Positions 98-5,717 of a stretch of 5,717 nucleotides of DNA are shown in pieces. The notes under the pieces are model-generated. The model was not told the DNA's origin. It saw nothing but the letters and a program-made list of their open reading frames with translations, and made no database searches. The stretch lies in IMG/VR virus record IMGVR_UViG_2671180577_000023; one strand, written 5' to 3'. This stretch comes from a virus. Lineage: Duplodnaviria > Heunggongvirae > Uroviricota > Caudoviricetes. A program made the position numbers and the translations under genes. Position 1 is the stretch's first letter. Each line of letters opens with the position of its first letter.

Positions 98-151
98 CCT
101 GTTTACCTCTTTCTCAGGAAGTTTAGTCTCCAGGATTCCCGGGGCGGTTCA
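1..151 (-). mobile_element. Left-hand partial IS3-family insertion sequence (IS629/IS1203-like): terminal inverted repeat tip at 151, element body continues left of the window
   Basis: Minus strand from 151 reads TGAACCGCCCCGGGAATCCTGGAGACTAAACTTCC, then AGGA RBS and an ATG at 97-95 opening an ORF that translates [32 protein letters not shown], a recalled IS3-family OrfA N-terminus. The same 14-nt tip TGAACCGCCCCGGG recurs at 5613 on the plus strand. Confidence 0.8.
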
Positions 152-266
152 GTGGGAGCGAGTCTGCGCCGCGCTGCGGGAGCTGAACAAGCACCGGGAT
201 ATTGTTCGACAGATTGTCGATTCATCCGGTCGTATTGTGTCGGAAAAGTGATTGCCGGAGGCGCTT

Positions 267-662
267 ATGGCGAAACCTTTTACACACGAACAGCGGGAAG
301 AACTGAAGGCACGAATTATCGGATTGGTACGCAAAAATGAACGCATGACGATATCGCAACTGGAGAGAGCGACGGGAGCAGGCTGGCATTCAGTCAGACG
401 TTGCCTTGTGGATGTACTGGCTTGTGGCGATTTATACATGTCCGGTAAATACGGTGTTTTTGCATCAGAACAGGTGTATCGCGTATGGCGTAAGACACCG
501 GAGAAAACAACTGACCAGACATTGATTCGAAAGTTACCAGACGGAGAAATTCGCCGCTACGATAGACGCCTGAACATAATCTGTCGCGAGTGCCGGAATA
601 GTGAAGTTATGCAGCGCGTGCTGGCTTTCTATCAGGGGAATTTTCAGGAGGCGGTACTGTGA
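267..662 (+). CDS. Hypothetical prophage protein, possible winged-helix DNA-binding protein (131 aa)
   Basis: ORF-track frame 252..662; the ATG at 267 is preferred because GGAGG sits 5 nt upstream. Stop TGA overlaps the GTG at 659 of the next ORF. Segment MTISQLERATGAGWHSVRRCL looks HTH-like. No family recognised. Confidence 0.6.
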   Translation: MAKPFTHEQREELKARIIGLVRKNERMTISQLERATGAGWHSVRRCLVDVLACGDLYMSGKYGVFASEQVYRVWRKTPEKTTDQTLIRKLPDGEIRRYDRRLNIICRECRNSEVMQRVLAFYQGNFQEAVL

Positions 663-718
663 GTAAATTAGCTATCAGGCTTCAATTGTCGCTGGCATTC
701 GCATCAAAGGAGAATGAG

Positions 719-1303
719 ATGACCACTTTTACAAAAGAGCAGTTAATCAGTCATGTTAGTGAAAATGTAAAGGCGATGAAATTTGCAGTAAAACAGACAG
801 CATTCAAAAATTCTCTCGAGGCAATTGAGTTGGATTTAGCACTGGCCCTTGTTGCTCAGGCTTCGCTGGAAGCAGAGCCCGTGCTTTATATGAATCGATT
901 TACCGGAAAGACATTCTCACTGGAAGAGCAACCCGGTGCTGATAAGGAACCGGAAATATACGTGCCGCTATATGCTGCCCCGCCAGACAGCGCCGCCATG
1001 CTTCAGGCTGGAAACTTTCGGGAAAAGAAGGGTTCGTCAACCAATAATTTTCGGGAAATCTCGGAAACGTCAACCAACCATCCGGTAACTCTGGATGGTT
1101 GGATAAGCTGTAGTGAGCGAATGCCGGATGACGGTCAGCACGTAATTATTTTATGTGATGGCGCATTCGTTCTTTATGCGCAATATCGAGACGGTGAGTT
1201 TTTTGATGTAGTCCGTGATGGTGATGAATTTTTCGAAACACAGAGCCGCAATGTAACCGACTGGATGCCGCTACCAGAACCGCCGCAGGAGGTGCGCCAA
1301 TGA
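719..1303 (+). CDS. Phage protein with C-terminal DUF551-like domain (194 aa from ATG 719; alternative GTG start at 659 gives 214 aa)
   Basis: ORF-track 659..1303. ATG at 719 is preceded by AAGGAG with 6-nt spacing. C-terminus WISCSERMPDDGQHVIILCDG...VTDWMPLPEPP follows the recalled DUF551 pattern common in lambdoid prophages. Confidence 0.7.
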   Translation: MTTFTKEQLISHVSENVKAMKFAVKQTAFKNSLEAIELDLALALVAQASLEAEPVLYMNRFTGKTFSLEEQPGADKEPEIYVPLYAAPPDSAAMLQAGNFREKKGSSTNNFREISETSTNHPVTLDGWISCSERMPDDGQHVIILCDGAFVLYAQYRDGEFFDVVRDGDEFFETQSRNVTDWMPLPEPPQEVRQ

Positions 1304-1383
1304 ACTGGCCTGAAGCATTTGCAATTACAGGCGTTGCTATGGCTATCACCTTTTTAGTATATGTTATTTGTCGGTGGGGGTAA
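1300..1383 (+). CDS. Small hydrophobic peptide, 27 aa (MNWPEAFAITGVAMAITFLVYVICRWG), predicted single transmembrane helix
   Basis: ATG at 1300 overlaps the TGA stop of the DUF551 gene (ATGA); AGGAGG lies 7 nt upstream. Not in the ORF track because it is under the size cutoff. Confidence 0.4.
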   Translation: MNWPEAFAITGVAMAITFLVYVICRWG

Positions 1384-1418
1384 AAACGTTCGCCGGGATT
1401 AACACCAAAGGAGGGAAT

Positions 1419-1523
1419 ATGTCGGATGATATATCACTGGCAATGGAAGGTGCGCTGGCTGTTATTGCTGTTGTGGGCGTTTACTGCCTGGTTGTGTTTT
1501 TGATGGATCGACTAGGGAACTGA
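1419..1523 (+). CDS. Small hydrophobic peptide, 34 aa (MSDDISLAMEGALAVIAVVGVYCLVVFLMDRLGN), predicted single transmembrane helix
   Basis: ATG at 1419 preceded by AAGGAGGG (1408-1415). Hydrophobic core flanked by charged residues. Not in the ORF track because it is under the size cutoff. Confidence 0.45.
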   Translation: MSDDISLAMEGALAVIAVVGVYCLVVFLMDRLGN

Positions 1524-1565
1524 ATTCATTACGATATGGGAATTCCCATATCGGGTAAAAACGGT

Positions 1566-1593
1566 TTGCGGTAAAGCGAGAGTTAAGTAGAAT
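1566..1593 (+). promoter_or_regulatory. Putative sigma70 promoter for the hok-like toxin mRNA (TTGCGG, 16 nt, TAGAAT)
   Basis: Hexamers read directly; position is consistent with a ~400-nt hok-type mRNA ending at the terminator near 2014. Confidence 0.3.
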
Positions 1594-1768
1594 TGCTGCG
1601 GGTGCTTGAGGCTGTCTGCCTCGGGCATGCCACCGTAAGGCAGACAGAGAAAAGCCCCAGTTAACATTACGCGTCCTGCAAGACGCCTAACATTAATCTG
1701 AGGCCAATTTCATGCTAGACACATGTAGGTTAGCCTCTTACGCGCCGAAAGGCAAGGAGAAGCAGGCT

Positions 1769-1924
1769 ATGAAGCAGCAAAAGGCGATGTTAGTCGCCCT
1801 GATCGTCATCTGTATTACCGTCGTAGTGACGGCACTGGTAACGAGGAAAGACCTCTGCGAGGTACGAATCCGAACCGGTCAGACGGAGGTTGCTGTCTTC
1901 ACAGCTTACGAACCTGAGGAGTAA
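1769..1924 (+). CDS. Hok/Gef-family type I toxin (51 aa, small membrane-active peptide)
   Basis: MKQQKAMLVALIVICITVVVTALVTRKDLCEVRIRTGQTEVAVFTAYEPEE has the Hok signature: N-terminal transmembrane helix then TRK.LCE.R...G..EVAAF.AYE. AAGGAG sits 9 nt upstream of the ATG. The ORF track extends the same frame to an ATG at 1712 (mok-like leader frame). Confidence 0.85.
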   Translation: MKQQKAMLVALIVICITVVVTALVTRKDLCEVRIRTGQTEVAVFTAYEPEE

Positions 1925-1992
1925 GAGACCAGGCGAGGGAGAAATCCCTCGCCACCTCTGATGTGTCAGGCATCCTCAACGCACCCGCACTT

Positions 1993-2014
1993 AACCCGCT
2001 TCGGCGGGTTTTTT
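1993..2014 (+). terminator. Rho-independent terminator ending the hok-like mRNA
   Basis: CCCGC-TTCG-GCGGG hairpin followed by TTTTTT. It is preceded at 1932-1953 by a 9-bp stem with GAAA loop (GGCGAGGGA gaaa TCCCTCGCC). Confidence 0.7.
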
Positions 2015-2133
2015 CACTTACTGTGGTTGTGAATACGATTGGTATTAGGCTATGCTAACAACATTAGCCTGACTAATTTTGTATTGACTTGATTTTTGTT
2101 AAAGAACAGGACGGAGAAGTAAGGGTACACCCA

Positions 2134-2313
2134 ATGAGCTACGCACTAAAAAAACACCCGCGATTGACTATTCCCCCTCGCGATAAAAGCGTTGTGGCAG
2201 CTCCGCGCCCGGCTATCGATGAAAATTGCACTCATCGTGAGCAGGTGAAAAATGCTTTCGATTTCGGTTTTTCTCGTTACGAGAAGGCAATGGAAGAACT
2301 TTCAAAAGTGTAA
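2134..2313 (+). CDS. Small protein (60 aa) directly upstream of the Doc-family gene; candidate antitoxin, not Phd-like
   Basis: ATG at 2134 with AAGGG 8 nt upstream; stop at 2311-2313 lies 18 nt before the Doc-like start. ORF-track frame 2089..2313 begins at a TTG. Sequence MSYALKKHPRLTIPPRDKSVVAAPRPAIDENCTHREQVKNAFDFGFSRYEKAMEELSKV shows no resemblance to Phd/YefM. Confidence 0.5.
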   Translation: MSYALKKHPRLTIPPRDKSVVAAPRPAIDENCTHREQVKNAFDFGFSRYEKAMEELSKV

Positions 2314-2331
2314 TGATGGGTATTGTGCTCT

Positions 2332-2817
2332 ATGGCTGAGATTGTTGAAGGAGTGCACTACCTTTCGTTTGATGATCTTACCGAAATTAATCGCCTTTTA
2401 ATTGAGCTTCAAACACCAGATGAACCTGTTAGTGTGCTGAGTGTTGATAATTTAAGTTCTTCTCAGTCTCGTCCCAGCATGGTTCGATGGTATGAACAGA
2501 CTAATGACATGTTTGTACTGGCATCAGTATTGATTGAAAGTCTGATTCAGAATCATCCATTTGCTAATGCAAACAAACGAACAGCTATGATGGCTGGTTA
2601 TGTCTTCTTGTTGTTGAATGGCTATGAGTTAACAGCACCAGGCGATGAAATCGTGGAAATGGCAGAGGGACTGGCCTGCAAAACCTATACTCGAGAAGAT
2701 CTCGAGAACTGGTTGTGTTATTGGTCTCGTGCGTATGACAGCCGGGAATTATGTAAAACAGGCGCAACTATTGTTTTGTATGAAACTATCAAGCTTAAAA
2801 TAGAACAGCAAAACTAA
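2332..2817 (+). CDS. Doc (death-on-curing) / Fic-fold family toxin, 161 aa
   Basis: Contains HPFANANKRTA, which fits the Doc motif H-x-F-x-(D/N)-(A/G)-N-K-R exactly. ORF-track frame 2323..2817 starts at TTG; the first ATG is at 2332. Confidence 0.8.
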   Translation: MAEIVEGVHYLSFDDLTEINRLLIELQTPDEPVSVLSVDNLSSSQSRPSMVRWYEQTNDMFVLASVLIESLIQNHPFANANKRTAMMAGYVFLLLNGYELTAPGDEIVEMAEGLACKTYTREDLENWLCYWSRAYDSRELCKTGATIVLYETIKLKIEQQN

Positions 2818-2833
2818 AGGTGCTTCTAATGAA

Positions 2834-2858
2834 AACCCGCTTCGGCGGGTTTTGTTGT
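2834..2858. terminator. Bidirectional intrinsic terminator between the convergent Doc-like and HigA-like genes
   Basis: CCCGC-TTCG-GCGGG hairpin (2836-2849) with TTTTGTTGT on the plus side and a T-run on the minus side. The hairpin and flanks (AACCCGCTTCGGCGGGTTTT) are identical to the hok terminator at 1993-2012. Confidence 0.6.
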
Positions 2859-2867
2859 ATTGGAGTA

Positions 2868-3185
2868 TCATGATATTACCTGGATCCCGTTTTTCTCTAC
2901 GACTGAAAGAAGGCGAAGAGCGGCACCTCCCGGCCGTTTTACACCACGTTCCCAGTCTGATATCAGGTTTTTACTGACGTTGAGGTATCTGGCAAAAACA
3001 GGTTGAGACAGATGCTCTCGTTCGCGCAGTGCACGGATCCTTTCCGGAGACATTACCGGCGCTGGCTGGAGACAAGTTTCATCGAATTCTCGCATAGTCT
3101 GTTTCGTTACTGCGCCGATATCATGAAGCGATTCCATCATTTCATGTACGGATGCAAGCGCATCACTGCGGTAATTTTTACTCAT
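2868..3185 (-). CDS. HigA-like antitoxin, XRE-type helix-turn-helix (COG2944-like), 105 aa
   Basis: ORF-track 2868..3185. C-terminal SPERIRALREREHLSQPVFARYLNVSKNLISDWERGVKRPGGAALRLL matches the recalled HTH antitoxin family partnered with RelE/ParE-like toxins. Its ATG (3185-3183) overlaps the stop of the upstream toxin frame (ATGAGTAA), the toxin-first order typical of HigBA. Confidence 0.8.
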   Translation of the reverse strand: MSKNYRSDALASVHEMMESLHDIGAVTKQTMREFDETCLQPAPVMSPERIRALREREHLSQPVFARYLNVSKNLISDWERGVKRPGGAALRLLSVVEKNGIQVIS

Positions 3186-3548
3186 TGGGTACCTCCGTAA
3201 ACTGACCCTGTAGAATCAGTTGTGCCAGTTGTTCATCTGTTAGATTGAGTACGTGAGGAGCCGCCTTCCGAAATGCACTTTCCGCAGTAGCGGTTATATT
3301 TTCACGTTCATTTTTTGCGTATGCATATACGAAAAAGGCCCTTGTGCCGACGCGATAGAAAATGATTGTGCGATAACCGCCAGATTTGCCGCCACCGACT
3401 CGTGGCAGACGTTGCTTGATAACGCCGTTACCCAGGTTTGCTGAGATAAGCCCGTTATCAGCCTGTTTAACAATTTCGCGCAGTGATTGGTCGGATATTT
3501 TGTTTTGCGTGCAAATCGCTCAAACCAGGCGTTTTTAAAAATGCGCAT
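3178..3548 (-). pseudogene. RelE/ParE-superfamily (HigB-like) toxin gene, disrupted by a frameshift after codon ~16
   Basis: From ATG 3548-3546 the frame reads MRIFKNAWFERFARK, the conserved N-terminus of this family, then runs into unrelated sequence (ORF-track 3294..3611). The rest of the toxin (KISDQSLREIVKQADNGLISANLGNGVIKQRLPRVGGGKSGGYRTIIFYRVGTRAFFVYAYAKNERENITATAESAFRKAAPHVLNLTDEQLAQLILQGQFTEVPNE) is intact in another frame with no start codon of its own. The break lies in the A-rich tract AAAACAAAATAT (about 3495-3506). Confidence 0.7.
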
Positions 3549-3570
3549 TTTTTGTTCCGTTATTAATGTA

Positions 3571-3585
3571 TAACACATAGTGTTA
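3571..3585. promoter_or_regulatory. Perfect inverted repeat TAACAC-ata-GTGTTA upstream of the higB-like start; candidate operator for the HigA-like repressor
   Basis: 6-bp arms with 3-bp spacer read directly; sits about 25 bp upstream of the toxin ATG in its promoter region. Confidence 0.35.
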
Positions 3586-3615
3586 CATTGCGTAGGGATC
3601 TGCAATGCCATCAGT

Positions 3616-3645
3616 TTGACAACGTCGCGTGTTCGGGGCTATATT
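3616..3645 (+). promoter_or_regulatory. Near-consensus sigma70 promoter (TTGACA, 18 nt, TATATT) driving the leader, c4-like RNA and ORF6N operon
   Basis: Hexamers read directly; the same architecture (TTGACG, 18 nt, TATATT) recurs at 5201-5230 upstream of the paralogous module. Confidence 0.6.
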
Positions 3646-3705
3646 CCTCACGCGCCAGCAAAACCTGGCGTCGGGATTAGCACCCCGGATATCGAAACGG
3701 TGCAT

Positions 3706-3726
3706 AACCGCGCTGGCGGTTTTTTT
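3706..3726 (+). terminator. Terminator-like hairpin plus T7 run in the leader, between target sites and the c4-like RNA (possible attenuator)
   Basis: AACCGC-GCTG-GCGGTT followed by TTTTTTT. The upstream CGCCAG (3653-3658) can pair with either CTGGCG copy (3665-3670 or 3713-3718), giving alternative folds. Confidence 0.45.
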
Positions 3727-3758
3727 ATGCGCTAAGCACAGTCACATTCGCGATTTAT

Positions 3759-3835
3759 GGCGGGCTGTGTGGGGGAGCCGAAAGGCTCGCCGGATGTTTC
3801 GACCGGTAGTGCTAACCCCGCACAGTTCGCCACCA
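3759..3835 (+). ncRNA. Candidate c4-like antisense regulatory RNA (~77 nt) upstream of the ORF6N gene
   Basis: A 16-bp closing helix (3759-3774 with 3816-3831) encloses a GNRA hairpin (GAGCC-GAAA-GGCTC) and two loops. Loop GTTTCGA (3796-3802) is complementary to TCGAAAC at 3692-3698 and 3873-3879; loop GTGCTAA (3809-3815) is complementary to TTAGCAC at 3677-3683 and 3842-3848. A 3-prime ACCA tail follows. The second target pair lies just upstream of the ORF6N RBS. Confidence 0.5.
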
Positions 3836-3890
3836 CGATGATTAGCACCTGACGGTGGCGAGGTAAAAATTATCGAAACGCGAGGTCATT

Positions 3891-4556
3891 ATGGCTGTTC
3901 AAATTTCTGTCGAAAACCTTTCCCCTGTTACCTATAACCAGATCCCCGTAATTACTACTGAACTGTTGGCTCACCTTTACGGAACAAAAATCAAAAACAT
4001 TTCTGATAACTTTCTGAACAACACGACGCGATTCATGCCCGGAAAGCATTACTTTAAAATTGAAAAAAACGAATTACGCGAGTTTAAGAACAGACCCGAA
4101 ACAATCGGGTTAGTTGGTAAAAATGCCCGCTCCCTCATCCTCTGGACAGAACGCGGCGCAGCCCGTCACGCAAAAATGCTCGAAACCGATCGGGCGTGGG
4201 AGGTATTCGAAAAACTGGAAGACTGCTATTTCAGCCAGGGAAAAACAGCACCAACCGAACAGCAGCCGCAGATTCAGCCACAATTCACAGCCGAAGAAAT
4301 CATCCTCCTTTGCTACATGCAGCTCTGGATGGAAAAAGCCCAGGACATCAGCAAACACCTGTATCCCATTATGAAAGAGCTGAACTCCTCATACACGAAC
4401 AAGCTGTATGACATTGCGTTTGAGACCATCTACATGGTGACGAAGAACAGAGACGCGCTACTGAGGGAGGTAACACGTCTCGACATGTCAAGTTCCGTTA
4501 TCCAGCGGGCCATGCCAATGCTGAAAAGCCTGCGGGCAAGACAATTTGAATTCTGA
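3891..4556 (+). CDS. Antirepressor-like protein with N-terminal ORF6N/KilA-N-type domain, 221 aa
   Basis: ORF-track 3891..4556; GAGG lies 5 nt upstream of the ATG. N-terminus MAVQISVENLSPVTYNQIPVITTELLAHLYGT...FMPGKHYFKIEKNELREF matches the recalled ORF6N pattern of phage antirepressors. Confidence 0.75.
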   Translation: MAVQISVENLSPVTYNQIPVITTELLAHLYGTKIKNISDNFLNNTTRFMPGKHYFKIEKNELREFKNRPETIGLVGKNARSLILWTERGAARHAKMLETDRAWEVFEKLEDCYFSQGKTAPTEQQPQIQPQFTAEEIILLCYMQLWMEKAQDISKHLYPIMKELNSSYTNKLYDIAFETIYMVTKNRDALLREVTRLDMSSSVIQRAMPMLKSLRARQFEF

Positions 4557-4560
4557 AACT

Positions 4561-4583
4561 AAAGGAGCTTCGGCTCCTTTTTT
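4561..4583 (+). terminator. Rho-independent terminator after the ORF6N gene
   Basis: GGAGC-TTCG-GCTCC hairpin followed by TTTTTT. Coordinates are approximate to within a base. Confidence 0.7.
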
Positions 4584-4610
4584 GTTGGGAAAATCCAGTG
4601 AGAGGGAATA

Positions 4611-5021
4611 ATGAACCAGACTATCTTCCTCCGAAGTAAGCAGCAGCAACAATTCGCCATTAACGCCATCCTTGCAACAACTCTCGATAAAGACAAACCC
4701 GTTACGATCCGCATCACCGATTACAAGCGGAATCTCGATCAAAATGCCAAATTTCACGCGATGGTCGCTGATATCTCCCGACAGGTTCAGTGGTGCGGCA
4801 GATGGCTAAAACCAGAACAGTGGAAAGTTTTGTTAATCAGCGGTCATGCCGTGGCGACAAAACAGGAAGCTGATGTTTTGCCTGGTCTTGAAGGTGAATA
4901 CGTCAATATCCGCGAAAGCAGTGCGCAGATGAGCGTGAAGCGTATGGCAAGCCTGATTGAGTACACAACTTCCTGGGCTGTGGAGCAGGGTGTCAGATTT
5001 ACCGACAGGAGGTATGAATGA
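4611..5021 (+). CDS. ninB: NinB-family protein (lambda NinB-like single-strand DNA-binding recombination protein), 136 aa
   Basis: ORF-track 4611..5021. Segment [33 protein letters not shown] aligns with the recalled lambda NinB core RSLDQNRKLWACLGDVSRQVEWHGRWLDAESWK. GAGGG RBS upstream. Confidence 0.8.
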
Positions 5022-5200
5022 GACGACAGCGACGAAGCATTACCGATATAGTCTGTGAAAACTGCAATTACCTTCCAACGAAACGTTCCAGAAATAAACC
5101 CAGGCCAATCCCAAAAGAATCTGACGTTAAAGCCTTCAATTACACGGCTCACCTGTGGGATATCCGGTGGCTAAGACATCGTGCGAGGAAAACAAGGTGA
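5018..5200 (+). CDS. ninE: NinE-family protein, 60 aa
   Basis: ORF-track 5018..5200. Start overlaps the ninB stop (ATGA). [60 protein letters not shown] matches the recalled lambda NinE sequence closely. Confidence 0.75.
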
Positions 5201-5230
5201 TTGACGTGATGATTTATTCGGGGCTATATT
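5201..5230 (+). promoter_or_regulatory. Sigma70 promoter (TTGACG, 18 nt, TATATT) of the second leader / c4-like / ORF6N module
   Basis: Same spacing and -10 as the promoter at 3616-3645. The downstream 40 nt (TTCCTCACGCGCCAGCAAAAYCTGGCGTCGGGATT) are nearly identical between modules. Confidence 0.55.
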
Positions 5231-5291
5231 CCTCACGCGCCAGCAAAATCTGGCGTCGGGATTGGCGTCCTGGATAGAGACCGCGACAGAT

Positions 5292-5314
5292 ACACGCCGC
5301 GAGCGTGTTTTTTA
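5292..5314 (+). terminator. Terminator-like hairpin plus T-run in the second leader (counterpart of 3706-3726)
   Basis: ACACGC-CGCGA-GCGTGT followed by TTTTTT. Sequence differs from module A but structure and position are conserved. Confidence 0.5.
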
Positions 5315-5344
5315 TTGTCGTATGCACGCGCACATCTGAATTAT

Positions 5345-5420
5345 GGTGGGCTGTGTGGGGGCGGAGAGATCCGCGCCGGTCGGTTTCCCGGTTACGCCAA
5401 CCCTGCACAGTTCACCACCA
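5345..5420 (+). ncRNA. Second candidate c4-like antisense RNA (~76 nt), diverged paralogue of 3759-3835
   Basis: Same architecture: 16-bp closing helix (5345-5360 with 5401-5416), GNRA hairpin GCGGA-GAGA-TCCGC, two recognition loops, ACCA tail. Loop ACGCCAA (5394-5400) is complementary to TTGGCGT at 5262-5268 and 5426-5432; loop GGTTTC is complementary to GAAACC near the RBS (5453-5458). Confidence 0.5.
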
Positions 5421-5474
5421 GACGATTGGCGTCGTCGGTGGTGAGTTATTAAGAAACCACTCGAGGGCGTCATT

Positions 5475-5615
5475 ATGACAACTCAAATCTCTGTTGAAAC
5501 ACTCTCCACGATTACTTACAAGCAGATCCCCGTTATCACTACCGAACTTTTGGCGCACCTTTACGGCACAGAAGCTATTCGTATTCGCCAGAATCACCAC
5601 GAAAACAAAGGTTGA
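5475..5615 (+). pseudogene. Second ORF6N antirepressor-like gene, truncated after codon 46 by the IS insertion
   Basis: GAGGG RBS then ATG at 5475; MTTQISVETLSTITYKQIPVITTELLAHLYGTEAIRIRQNHHENKG parallels the first 46 residues of the 3891..4556 protein. The frame stops at TGA 5613-5615, which is the first three bases of the IS terminal repeat. Confidence 0.75.
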
Positions 5616-5717
5616 ACCGCCCCGGGTTTCCTGGAGAGTGTTTTATCTGTGAACTCAGGCTGCCAGATCATCGTTTCCGATGGAAGCATAATAAGCTTTT
5701 TCTGCTTCTGCCGGAGG
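5613..5717 (-). mobile_element. Right-hand partial IS3-family insertion sequence (IS629/IS1203-like): terminal repeat at 5613, body continues past the window end
   Basis: Plus strand from 5613 reads TGAACCGCCCCGGGTTTCCTGGAGAGTG, sharing its first 14 nt with the repeat at 151 and diverging after, as expected for the opposite end of the same IS. Same orientation as the left copy. Confidence 0.8.
5655..5717 (-). CDS. IS3-family transposase OrfB, C-terminal 20 codons only (continues beyond window end)
   Basis: Minus-strand frame reads PPAEAEKAYYASIGNDDLAA then TGA (plus 5655-5657), ending about 40 nt inside the terminal repeat, the usual layout for an IS3-family OrfB. Confidence 0.55.
   Translation of the reverse strand, partial: PPAEAEKAYYASIGNDDLAA

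Follow-up and report, generated by a model that had tools for sequence, protein, structure and literature searches.

We propose that about 1.9 kb of a lambda-like (lambdoid) E. coli prophage, within positions 1560-3590 of the window (the whole 5,717-nt stretch of DNA that was analysed), very probably form an accessory slot of variable content, with the replication/early genes on one side and the antirepressor-nin genes on the other, in which three independent toxin-antitoxin (TA) cassettes of known kinds have accumulated. These three small modules follow one another in the order hok/mok/sok (type I), Doc with a 59-aa partner, and a HigB2/HigA2-type module on the minus strand. The preliminary description of this DNA had announced a hok-like, a Doc-family and a HigBA-type module between the early genes and the antirepressor/nin genes. 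All three lie where it had located them, with family scores far beyond chance; the assignments hold in view of the Pfam, NCBIfam and PDB matches, and the region is indeed flanked by the early DUF977/DUF551 genes on one side and by the antirepressor/ninB genes on the other. All the parts except the 59-aa partner belong to known, already annotated families. Our literature searches, which did return the hokW-sokW study, work on HigA2 and papers on the P2/P4 hotspots, found neither the three-module cluster nor the 59-aa protein described. The features of the region are the following:

1565-1599, plus strand: putative hok promoter (-35 TTTGCG at 1565-1570, 17-nt spacer, -10 TAGAAT at 1588-1593, start near G1600)
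1600-2016, plus strand: full-length hok mRNA, with 5' tac/3' fbi pairing, ending at the terminator hairpin 1993-2012 and its T-run
1650-1755, minus strand: predicted Sok antisense RNA (~1720 to 1650) and its promoter, located by homology to the annotated sokW of 933W
1712-1924, plus strand: mok-like frame (70 aa) from the open reading frame list, overlapping hok in frame and collinear with mokW as annotated in 933W
1769-1924, plus strand: hok toxin gene (51-aa membrane peptide; Pfam HOK_GEF, PHROG 251, RefSeq HokD)
1993-2012, plus strand: 20-bp direct repeat, left copy (AACCCGCTTCGGCGGGTTTT); hok terminator and left joint of the Doc cassette
2134-2313, plus strand: 59-aa partner, putative antitoxin (disordered N-terminal half; one conserved C-terminal helix, residues 34-57)
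2332-2817, plus strand: Doc-family toxin (161 aa), frame intact (TIGR01550, Pfam Fic/DOC, PDB, PHROG 577)
2832-2853, no strand assigned: bidirectional terminator hairpin holding the right repeat copy (2834-2853); right joint of the Doc cassette
2868-3185, minus strand: intact HigA2-type antitoxin (105 aa, C-terminal HTH; Pfam HTH_3, PDB HigA-2)
3178-3548, minus strand: HigB2/RelE-type toxin pseudogene (1-nt deletion, A5 to A4, at 3503-3506; the frame shifts after codon 15)
3549-3587, minus strand: higBA upstream region, probable promoter/operator, with the block 3569-3587 and, in it, the inverted repeat TAACAC-ATA-GTGTTA

Occupancy of the slot and cassette joints

In a set of 5,426 complete E. 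coli genomes, hok is present in 4,722, HigBA2 in 217 and Doc in 125, and only 34 carry all three modules. The loci sampled also show hok with Doc, hok with HigBA2, HigBA2 alone and hok alone; the three modules do not form a fixed block, and the cassette-like variation foreseen in the preliminary description is found. Other TA systems occupy the same slot elsewhere, namely RelBE in the Qin prophage of K-12 and ParDE and VapBC in Salmonella. Furthermore, the toxin gene of the HigBA-type module has decayed repeatedly and independently, which supports the ongoing turnover that had been suggested for the cluster. These comparisons support the view that related prophages gain and lose the three cassettes independently.

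The breakpoints between loci fall exactly at terminator hairpins. The two copies of the 20-bp repeat are exact and lie 841 bp apart, start to start, the Doc cassette being an 841-bp unit between identical hairpins. The Doc-less loci have kept a single copy of the repeat, all the Doc-bearing loci diverge from one another immediately past the right hairpin, and a related hairpin is found 3' of Doc even in Ewingella. The cassettes have one and the same Rho-independent terminator hairpin as their boundary, and this hairpin would act as the joint for their gain or loss by recombination; the identical hairpins could also reflect gene conversion between common terminators, and not a mechanism of insertion.

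The morons of lambdoid phages, a concept that arose from the HK97/HK022 comparisons, are promoter-gene-terminator insertions. The cassettes described here share with them their discrete nature, their presence or absence between collinear prophages and their Rho-independent terminator ends. They differ from them by the weakness of the hok/sok hexamers, the only ones found, by the sharing of one terminator between two cassettes and by the presence of the same 20-bp hairpin on both sides of the Doc cassette, as a direct repeat. The claim that each module has its own regulatory signals and terminator stands for the terminators only in part: the terminator scan places hairpins at 1993-2010 and 2832-2853, and the right one is common to the convergent Doc and higBA operons, which leaves two terminators for three modules; as for the promoters, the consensus scan detected none scoring at least 9/12 for the Doc or the HigBA operon.

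Defence or addiction

The link of the cluster to phage defence and prophage stabilisation, as made in the preliminary description, is one of general association, and any role of the cassettes in prophage retention or phage exclusion is a putative one. Some TA systems are known abortive-infection systems, and the slot contains different TA types according to the prophage: RelBE, Doc, HigBA2, ParDE or VapBC. A variable slot content is the signature that defined the P2/P4 hotspots (PMC9122126), and the cluster might, like them, be an anti-phage defence island selected for abortive infection or superinfection exclusion, instead of selfish addiction cassettes in a permissive site. We find this reading possible but rather doubtful. 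No model of a described anti-phage system was specifically matched in the PADLOC search: Hok, the 59-aa protein and HigB gave no match, Doc gave two marginal matches to PDC-S23 (E=0.002 and 0.0045), and HigA matched only generic models of the HTH region (RmrA, control protein, capH). One of the three toxins is dead and still decaying, and what has been published for hokW-sokW, the closest studied hok locus, is an aid to the release of phage rather than defence (PMC8621323).

The hok/mok/sok locus

Judged from its sequence, the hok/mok/sok locus is complete. The 51-aa toxin matches Pfam HOK_GEF (E=5.6e-24, 83.9 bits for a cut-off of 22) and PHROG 251, 'MokW-like host killing' (E=1.8e-32). The whole locus shows 91.6% nucleotide identity to hokW/mokW/sokW of 933W/Sp5, with compensatory changes in the leader hairpin, and hokW-sokW acts as a TA system in experiment, the toxicity of Hok being repressed by Sok (PMC8621323). 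The locus of the Stx phages 933W and Sp5 (VT2-Sakai) resembles the present one in its leader, mok, hok and sok regions and in its 51-aa toxin; it differs by its place in 933W, close to the right end of the genome, whereas ours is found in the nin region, and by its lack of the CCCGC-TTCG-GCGGG terminator present here. In the Qin prophage of K-12, in contrast to our complete locus, hokD (relF) has lost its 5' part and is fused behind relBE. The hok gene described here bears the RefSeq name hokD.

The hexamers of the hok promoter are weak and were picked out by eye; as their score is under the threshold of the consensus scan, the promoter is a putative one, and its position is supported by the Rfam hok-leader model, which begins at 1600. 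This model, RF01794, matches 1600-1774 with 116.9 bits for a gathering score of 59 and is named 'sok'; since the match is on the hok-sense strand, it models the leader of the hok mRNA and not Sok. Sok itself is antisense and would run from ~1720 to 1650. In the minimum free energy fold of 1600-2016 (z = -6.47), tac (1600-1612) pairs with fbi (1974-1986). The predicted antisense Sok, with its own promoter and terminator, lies opposite the mok start: its promoter, as read from the sequence, combines two weak hexamers, -35 TTGCCT (1755-1750) and -10 TAACCT (1732-1727), separated by a 17-nt spacer, and its predicted hairpin, followed by CUUUU, has a folding energy of -31.6 kcal/mol (z = -5.63). 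The mok-like frame would carry the ribosomes into hok.

The Doc toxin and its 59-aa partner

The toxin of the second module is assigned to the Doc family by its matches to TIGR01550 DOC_P1 (E=1.3e-35, 122.2 bits, cut-off 38.65), Pfam Fic/DOC PF02661 (2.9e-11, 44.5 bits, cut-off 24), PHROG 577 'Doc-like toxin' (1e-50) and, among the PDB entries, 9vzc, the Doc of E. faecalis (1e-12), and P1 Doc (1e-4). The Doc-type active-site motif is HxFx(D/N)(A/G)NKR; it is intact here as HPFANANKR, which the alignment places opposite HIFNDANKR in P1 Doc and HCFYNANKR in 9vzc.

Pfam, NCBIfam and PDB yielded no match to the 59-aa protein. The profile search of its family against the PDB sequences and the Foldseek search with its model found nothing, and in particular no Phd-like relationship; none of these searches detected a similarity to any antitoxin. 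The protein belongs to PHROG 2208, of unknown function, and its family comprises only 17 homologue clusters, in Enterobacterales, whose C-terminal 23 residues are nearly invariant. In the AF2 model, the helix has a pLDDT above 90, and neither a Phd fold nor a DNA-binding fold is predicted. The toxin is a Doc, but with a 59-aa partner that is not Phd/YefM the module departs from the canonical Phd-Doc type. With the Phd-Doc systems of phage P1 and of the Enterococcus faecalis chromosome (PDB 9vzc; PMC13034048), it shares a Doc-subfamily Fic toxin with its motif and a small gene immediately upstream; it differs from them by the product of this gene, which is not Phd/YefM, AbrB or RHH, and by the length of Doc, 161 aa with a C-terminal extension here versus 126 aa in P1 Doc.

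In four unrelated contexts (E. coli lambdoid prophages, a myovirus-like tail/baseplate module of Ewingella, a dinI/umuDC context and a Salmonella prophage), a Fic/Doc gene is immediately preceded by the 59-aa gene, always in the same order and with a gap of 10-18 nt, and the two genes are paired in all the E. coli loci sampled. The gene order, the co-occurrence and the predicted helix suggest that the 59-aa partner is the antitoxin of Doc. Alternatively, the two would not form a TA pair at all: Doc would modify the host translation in lytic growth, and its small neighbour would be an unrelated moron product or a regulator. The lack of similarity of the 59-aa protein to Phd/YefM or to any antitoxin, the lack of a predicted DNA-binding fold and the location of the pair inside a tail/baseplate gene module in Ewingella would agree with this second explanation, which we nevertheless judge improbable, because the adjacency, the order and the 10-18 nt spacing are kept in four unrelated contexts and because an unguarded active Doc kinase would, to judge from P1 Doc, be lethal to the lysogen. 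Furthermore, the C-terminus of Phd neutralises Doc, and the invariant amphipathic C-terminal helix of the 59-aa protein would resemble this mode of neutralisation. We thus keep the antitoxin role as the preferred reading for the partner of Doc.

The HigB2/HigA2-type module and the decay of its toxin gene

In the third module, the two genes form one operon in which the toxin comes first, and the higB stop overlaps the antitoxin start (ATGAGTAA). The antitoxin matches Pfam HTH_3 (1e-7), and its best solved relative is HigA-2 of V. cholerae (5jaa, 5j9i; E=7.9e-8, residues 45-99 on 39-93); the protein, WP_000042397.1, is identical in all the 99%-allele loci sampled. Once its frame is repaired, the toxin matches Pfam PF06296 RelE over 120/120 positions (E=1.2e-45), and its best PDB relative is HigB-2, at the marginal level of E=5e-3. 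The module resembles HigB2-HigA2 of Vibrio cholerae (PDB 5jaa, 5j9i; PMC11006873) by its toxin-first order and by an antitoxin of similar size (~104 aa in V. cholerae) whose HTH is C-terminal and whose toxin-binding region is N-terminal. It differs by its toxin, to which V. cholerae HigB-2 is only distantly related, marginally at the sequence level, by the frameshift in the toxin gene and by its location in a prophage, the Vibrio system being found in a superintegron.

The frameshift noticed in the preliminary description is real. Compared with a 99.2%-identical intact allele of 123 aa in L007, in which the A5 run is kept, the toxin gene has lost one A at nt 47 (delA47). The same deletion is found in at least 7 independent assemblies, which rules out a sequencing error. 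The prophage has no intact, translatable higB, and its module is a decayed member of the family; no ATG, GTG or TTG start occurs in the toxin frame past the deletion. PGAP/RefSeq annotates the shifted gene with a CDS of 112 aa that begins with ATT; this call of an intact CDS is probably wrong, though in view of it some residual expression of the shifted higB may occur.

Across lineages, the toxin gene shows four independent lesions: delA47, delC287, an IS66 insertion and, in another allele, insG95. The first is common to all the three-module loci sampled and is widespread, being found also in the deposited complete phage genome PhiR12_3; delC287 and the IS66 insertion are secondary lesions on the delA47 background. 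The comparison of the substitutions in higB and higA as a sign of relaxed selection gave 2-4 versus 1 mismatches, in loci too similar to discriminate. Phase variation at the A-run was considered and rejected, given that the run is only 4-5 nt long and that secondary lesions occur on the deleted allele. A higB kept alive as an attenuated working TA by a low-level -1 ribosomal slippage at A AAA T, giving a trickle of toxin, would fit the wide distribution of delA47, PhiR12_3 included, and the perfect re-pairing of the AAA codon 3500-3498 on 3501-3499 (a single-tRNA -1 slip at a second A4 run that enters the toxin frame exactly), but we regard it as most improbable, the site having neither a stimulatory element nor an X XXY YYZ heptamer, delC287 and IS66 having accumulated on the delA47 background as expected of a gene already out of use, and an intact A5 allele existing in L007.

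Upstream of higB, the block 3569-3587 is conserved between 84%-diverged alleles while its flanks diverge, and the homology between these alleles stops at 3587; this points to a probable promoter/operator. Neither for Doc nor for higBA did the inverted-repeat tool, with the thresholds it applies, report an upstream operator. The repeat TAACAC-ATA-GTGTTA (6+6 bp) was seen only by eye.

Proposed model and conclusions

In the model we propose, each cassette would act in its own way. The folded and stable hok mRNA would be silenced in two ways, by its own 5'-3' tac-fbi pairing and by Sok, a short-lived antisense RNA; upon the loss of Sok, mok and hok would be translated and the membrane peptide would kill the cell. 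By analogy with P1 Doc, the Doc toxin would phosphorylate EF-Tu and halt translation, and it would be held in check by the co-transcribed 59-aa protein, most likely via its conserved C-terminal helix, this protein being probably devoid of a folded DNA-binding domain. In the third cassette, HigB would be a ribosome-dependent RNase toxin, dead through the 1-nt deletion, and the intact HTH antitoxin would probably persist as an autorepressor; it might also neutralise related toxins that enter the cell.

A broader reading, which we put forward only tentatively and hold to be rather unlikely as a whole, would join these elements. The hok-side site of the prophage (3' of hok here, 5' in K-12) would be a terminator-anchored TA hotspot in the lambdoid prophages of Enterobacteriaceae, working as a defence/competition island, and the 59-aa protein would be a new minimal Doc antitoxin, made of a disordered region and one helix and devoid of a DNA-binding domain; the 0.84-kb Doc unit would travel even into the tail-gene modules of unrelated phages.

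In conclusion, the region is a tidy case of a known pattern rather than a new system, and it leaves the current understanding of TA systems unchanged. The partner of this Doc-subfamily toxin, annotated only as 'hypothetical', may well represent a new family of small antitoxins. The slot offers a compact natural example of prophages shuffling addiction-type cassettes: all its occupancy states are found in sequenced E. coli, its joints are resolved to the base at the shared hairpin, and one of its toxins is caught at several stages of decay while the cognate antitoxin is kept.

Occupancy of the prophage slot

The three toxin modules of the window are confirmed and behave as cassettes subject to turnover, as the preliminary description had proposed: the occupancy of the slot varies and lesions recur in one of the toxin genes. 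The features on which the analysis rests are the following.

Features of the window
1302-1382 and 1419-1523: tiny hydrophobic ORFs of 26 and 34 aa, in the DUF551-hok interval
1712 (start): mok frame, overlapping hok (ORF list)
1769-1924: hok (Pfam HOK_GEF, E=5.6e-24; PHROG 251, 'MokW-like host killing')
2134-2313, plus strand: 59-aa ORF, 18 nt 5' of Doc
2332-2817, plus strand: Doc-subfamily Fic protein (TIGR01550, E=1.3e-35; Pfam, 2.9e-11)
2868-3185, minus strand: HTH antitoxin, 105 aa (best solved match V. cholerae HigA-2, E=7.9e-8)
3178-3516, minus strand: toxin CDS of 112 aa annotated by PGAP (13619-13957 of the compared locus L001)
3616-3645: strong promoter of antirepressor unit 1, TTGACA-18-TATATT
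5201-5230: strong promoter of antirepressor unit 2, TTGACG-18-TATATT

Among 5,426 complete E. coli genomes, the hok part is found in 4,722, the HigBA2 cassette in 217, the Doc cassette in 125 and all three elements in 34, and the slot is filled by varied combinations.

Content of the slot (sampled loci, and K-12)
hok only: O157:H7
hok+Doc: O157:H7 F6294, 13E0725, M11, ETEC
hok+HigBA2: O145, RM9387, HCP4S3_I4
HigBA2 without hok: SLK172, phage PhiR12_3
relBE+hokD: K-12 Qin (relB-relE-hokD at the equivalent place)
Hok+Doc+ParDE+VapBC: Salmonella

In the Salmonella enterica locus (GCA_011585245.1, 2496-5009), four TA modules, namely Hok, the 59-aa/Doc pair, ParE/ParD and PIN(VapC)/VapB, are packed within 2.5 kb.

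Pairwise BLAST places the cassette joints at the terminator hairpins. In the Doc-less loci, the alignment stops at 2012 and restarts at 2834, with 20 bp matching 1993-2012 and 2834-2853 alike, these two segments being an exact 20-bp direct repeat, AACCCGCTTCGGCGGGTTTT, spaced 841 bp. The Doc-bearing lineages all diverge immediately 3' of the second hairpin, and a hairpin of related type also lies 3' of Doc in Ewingella. Recombination also breaks within the modules and operons themselves: in phage PhiR12_3, higB differs from the window by 3 mismatches and higA by 40 (an antitoxin 13% diverged), and in an O157-type locus the 59-aa gene shows 0 mismatches and doc 36 (7.4%). Varied occupancy, joints at hairpins and breaks within modules together argue against a fixed conserved block.

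The attribution of a terminator and of regulatory signals to each module holds only in part. Doc and higBA run towards each other and end at a common bidirectional hairpin (2832-2853), which leaves the three modules with two terminators in all. For neither operon did the consensus scan detect a promoter scoring 9/12 or better; a block at 3569-3587, kept between diverged alleles and containing TAACAC-ATA-GTGTTA, hints at a candidate higBA operator.

Genomic setting

Over positions 151-5612 the window matches a lambdoid prophage of E. coli ML35 at 100% identity; in that prophage the genes run cI/cro/cII, replication genes, DUF1627, DUF977, DUF551, a 34-aa ORF, hokD, a hypothetical gene, Doc, the HTH gene, the RelE/ParE toxin, an ORF6N antirepressor, ninB, ninE and ant, on to Q. 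This order confirms the position of the cluster, after the early genes and ahead of the antirepressor/nin genes. At each extremity (1-150 and 5613-5717) the window consists of an IS1203/IS629 end; an IS orfA start runs leftward from about position 97, and by our reading of the end sequences the two copies have the same orientation. This IS-flanked arrangement of the 5.46-kb piece is absent from the complete E. coli genomes of the collection, where the best coverage is 96%.

Two tandem P1-immI-like antirepressor control units occupy 3616-4556 and 5201-5612. Each contains an ORF6N antirepressor gene and matches to the Rfam c4-a1b1, isrK and C4 antisense RNA models, all above the gathering score; the second ant gene is interrupted at 5613 by the IS. 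The 34-aa ORF at 1419-1523 is annotated in all related prophages as hypothetical protein WP_001278450.1 and has no match in Pfam, NCBIfam or PHROG. A perfect 22-bp palindrome, CGATATGGGAATTCCCATATCG, lies at 1532-1553, directly 5' of the inferred hok promoter, and is kept in related loci, where it appears as a reverse self-match in BLAST.

The hok/sok locus

The hok/sok locus is complete and shares 91.6% identity with hokW/mokW/sokW of 933W and VT2-Sakai; hokW-sokW acts as a TA pair and aids Sp5 release (PMC8621323). K-12 hokD, in contrast, matches only from 1755 onward, because relBE takes the place of its 5' part. The Rfam model RF01794 'sok' has its hit (116.9 bits, 1600-1774) on the hok-sense strand, up to the hok AUG; what it models is therefore the hok mRNA leader and not the antisense RNA. 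When the annotated sokW feature is transferred, Sok falls on the minus strand, from about 1720 down to 1650, a stretch which folds as a long hairpin with CUUUU after it (z = -5.63). The hexamers TTGCCT-17 nt-TAACCT can be read 5' of it. Compared with 933W, the first leader hairpin of the hok mRNA shows G:C to A:U changes that are compensatory. In the fold of 1600-2016 the 5' end pairs with 1974-1986 (z = -6.47), a predicted closure corresponding to the tac-fbi arrangement of hok mRNAs.

The HigBA2-type remnant

The 105-aa HTH protein has the same length and domain position as V. cholerae HigA-2, and the gene 5' of it, which it overlaps by ATGAGTAA, encodes a RelE-fold toxin. Once its frame is repaired, this toxin gives a full-length match to PF06296 (E=1.2e-45), with HigB-2 as the top PDB matches. 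Alignment to an intact 123-aa allele (99.2% identical) confirms the frameshift noticed earlier: one A of an A5 run (3503-3506) is missing and the frame is lost after codon 15. No ATG, GTG or TTG was found in the downstream frame, yet in PGAP (RefSeq) the gene is treated not as a pseudogene but as a CDS with an ATT start codon, named 'RelE/ParE family toxin'. Toxin fragments of 68 to 98 aa are annotated as CDS in other lineages.

The deletion is found in all sampled three-module loci and in phage PhiR12_3. Further lesions occur on this background: delC287, in O104:H4 among others, and an insertion of IS66 accompanied by a duplication of 8 bp. The lesion insG95, in a diverged allele, is independent. 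The antitoxin protein is identical across all near-identical loci. The pattern is that of a dead toxin and a retained antitoxin.

The Doc module and its 59-aa partner

The Doc motif HPFANANKR is intact, and the nearest solved structures are E. faecalis Doc 9vzc (1e-12; PMC13034048), then P1 Doc. The 59-aa ORF has no match in Pfam, NCBIfam, PADLOC or PDB and is assigned to PHROG 2208, 'unknown function'. Its homologues form only 17 clusters (E. coli, Salmonella, Ewingella, metagenomes), in which the length is kept and the last 23 C-terminal residues are nearly invariant; in the AF2 model the N-terminal half is disordered and a single helix, residues 34-57, is predicted with confidence. The gene lies directly 5' of a Doc gene in every context examined: in lambdoid prophages of E. 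coli and a prophage of Salmonella, in a dinI/umuDC setting, and within the tail/baseplate module of a prophage of myovirus-like type in Ewingella. From this constant association we infer that the 59-aa protein would be the cognate Doc antitoxin, of a family unrelated to Phd.

PADLOC returned generic HTH matches and two marginal Doc matches only, and no test run supports the suggested defence role. In conclusion, the toxins, like the HigA-type antitoxin, are all members of known families and have RefSeq annotations already, the 59-aa partner of Doc is the only uncharacterised component, and the cluster is a clean but ordinary case of TA accretion in the accessory slot of a prophage.
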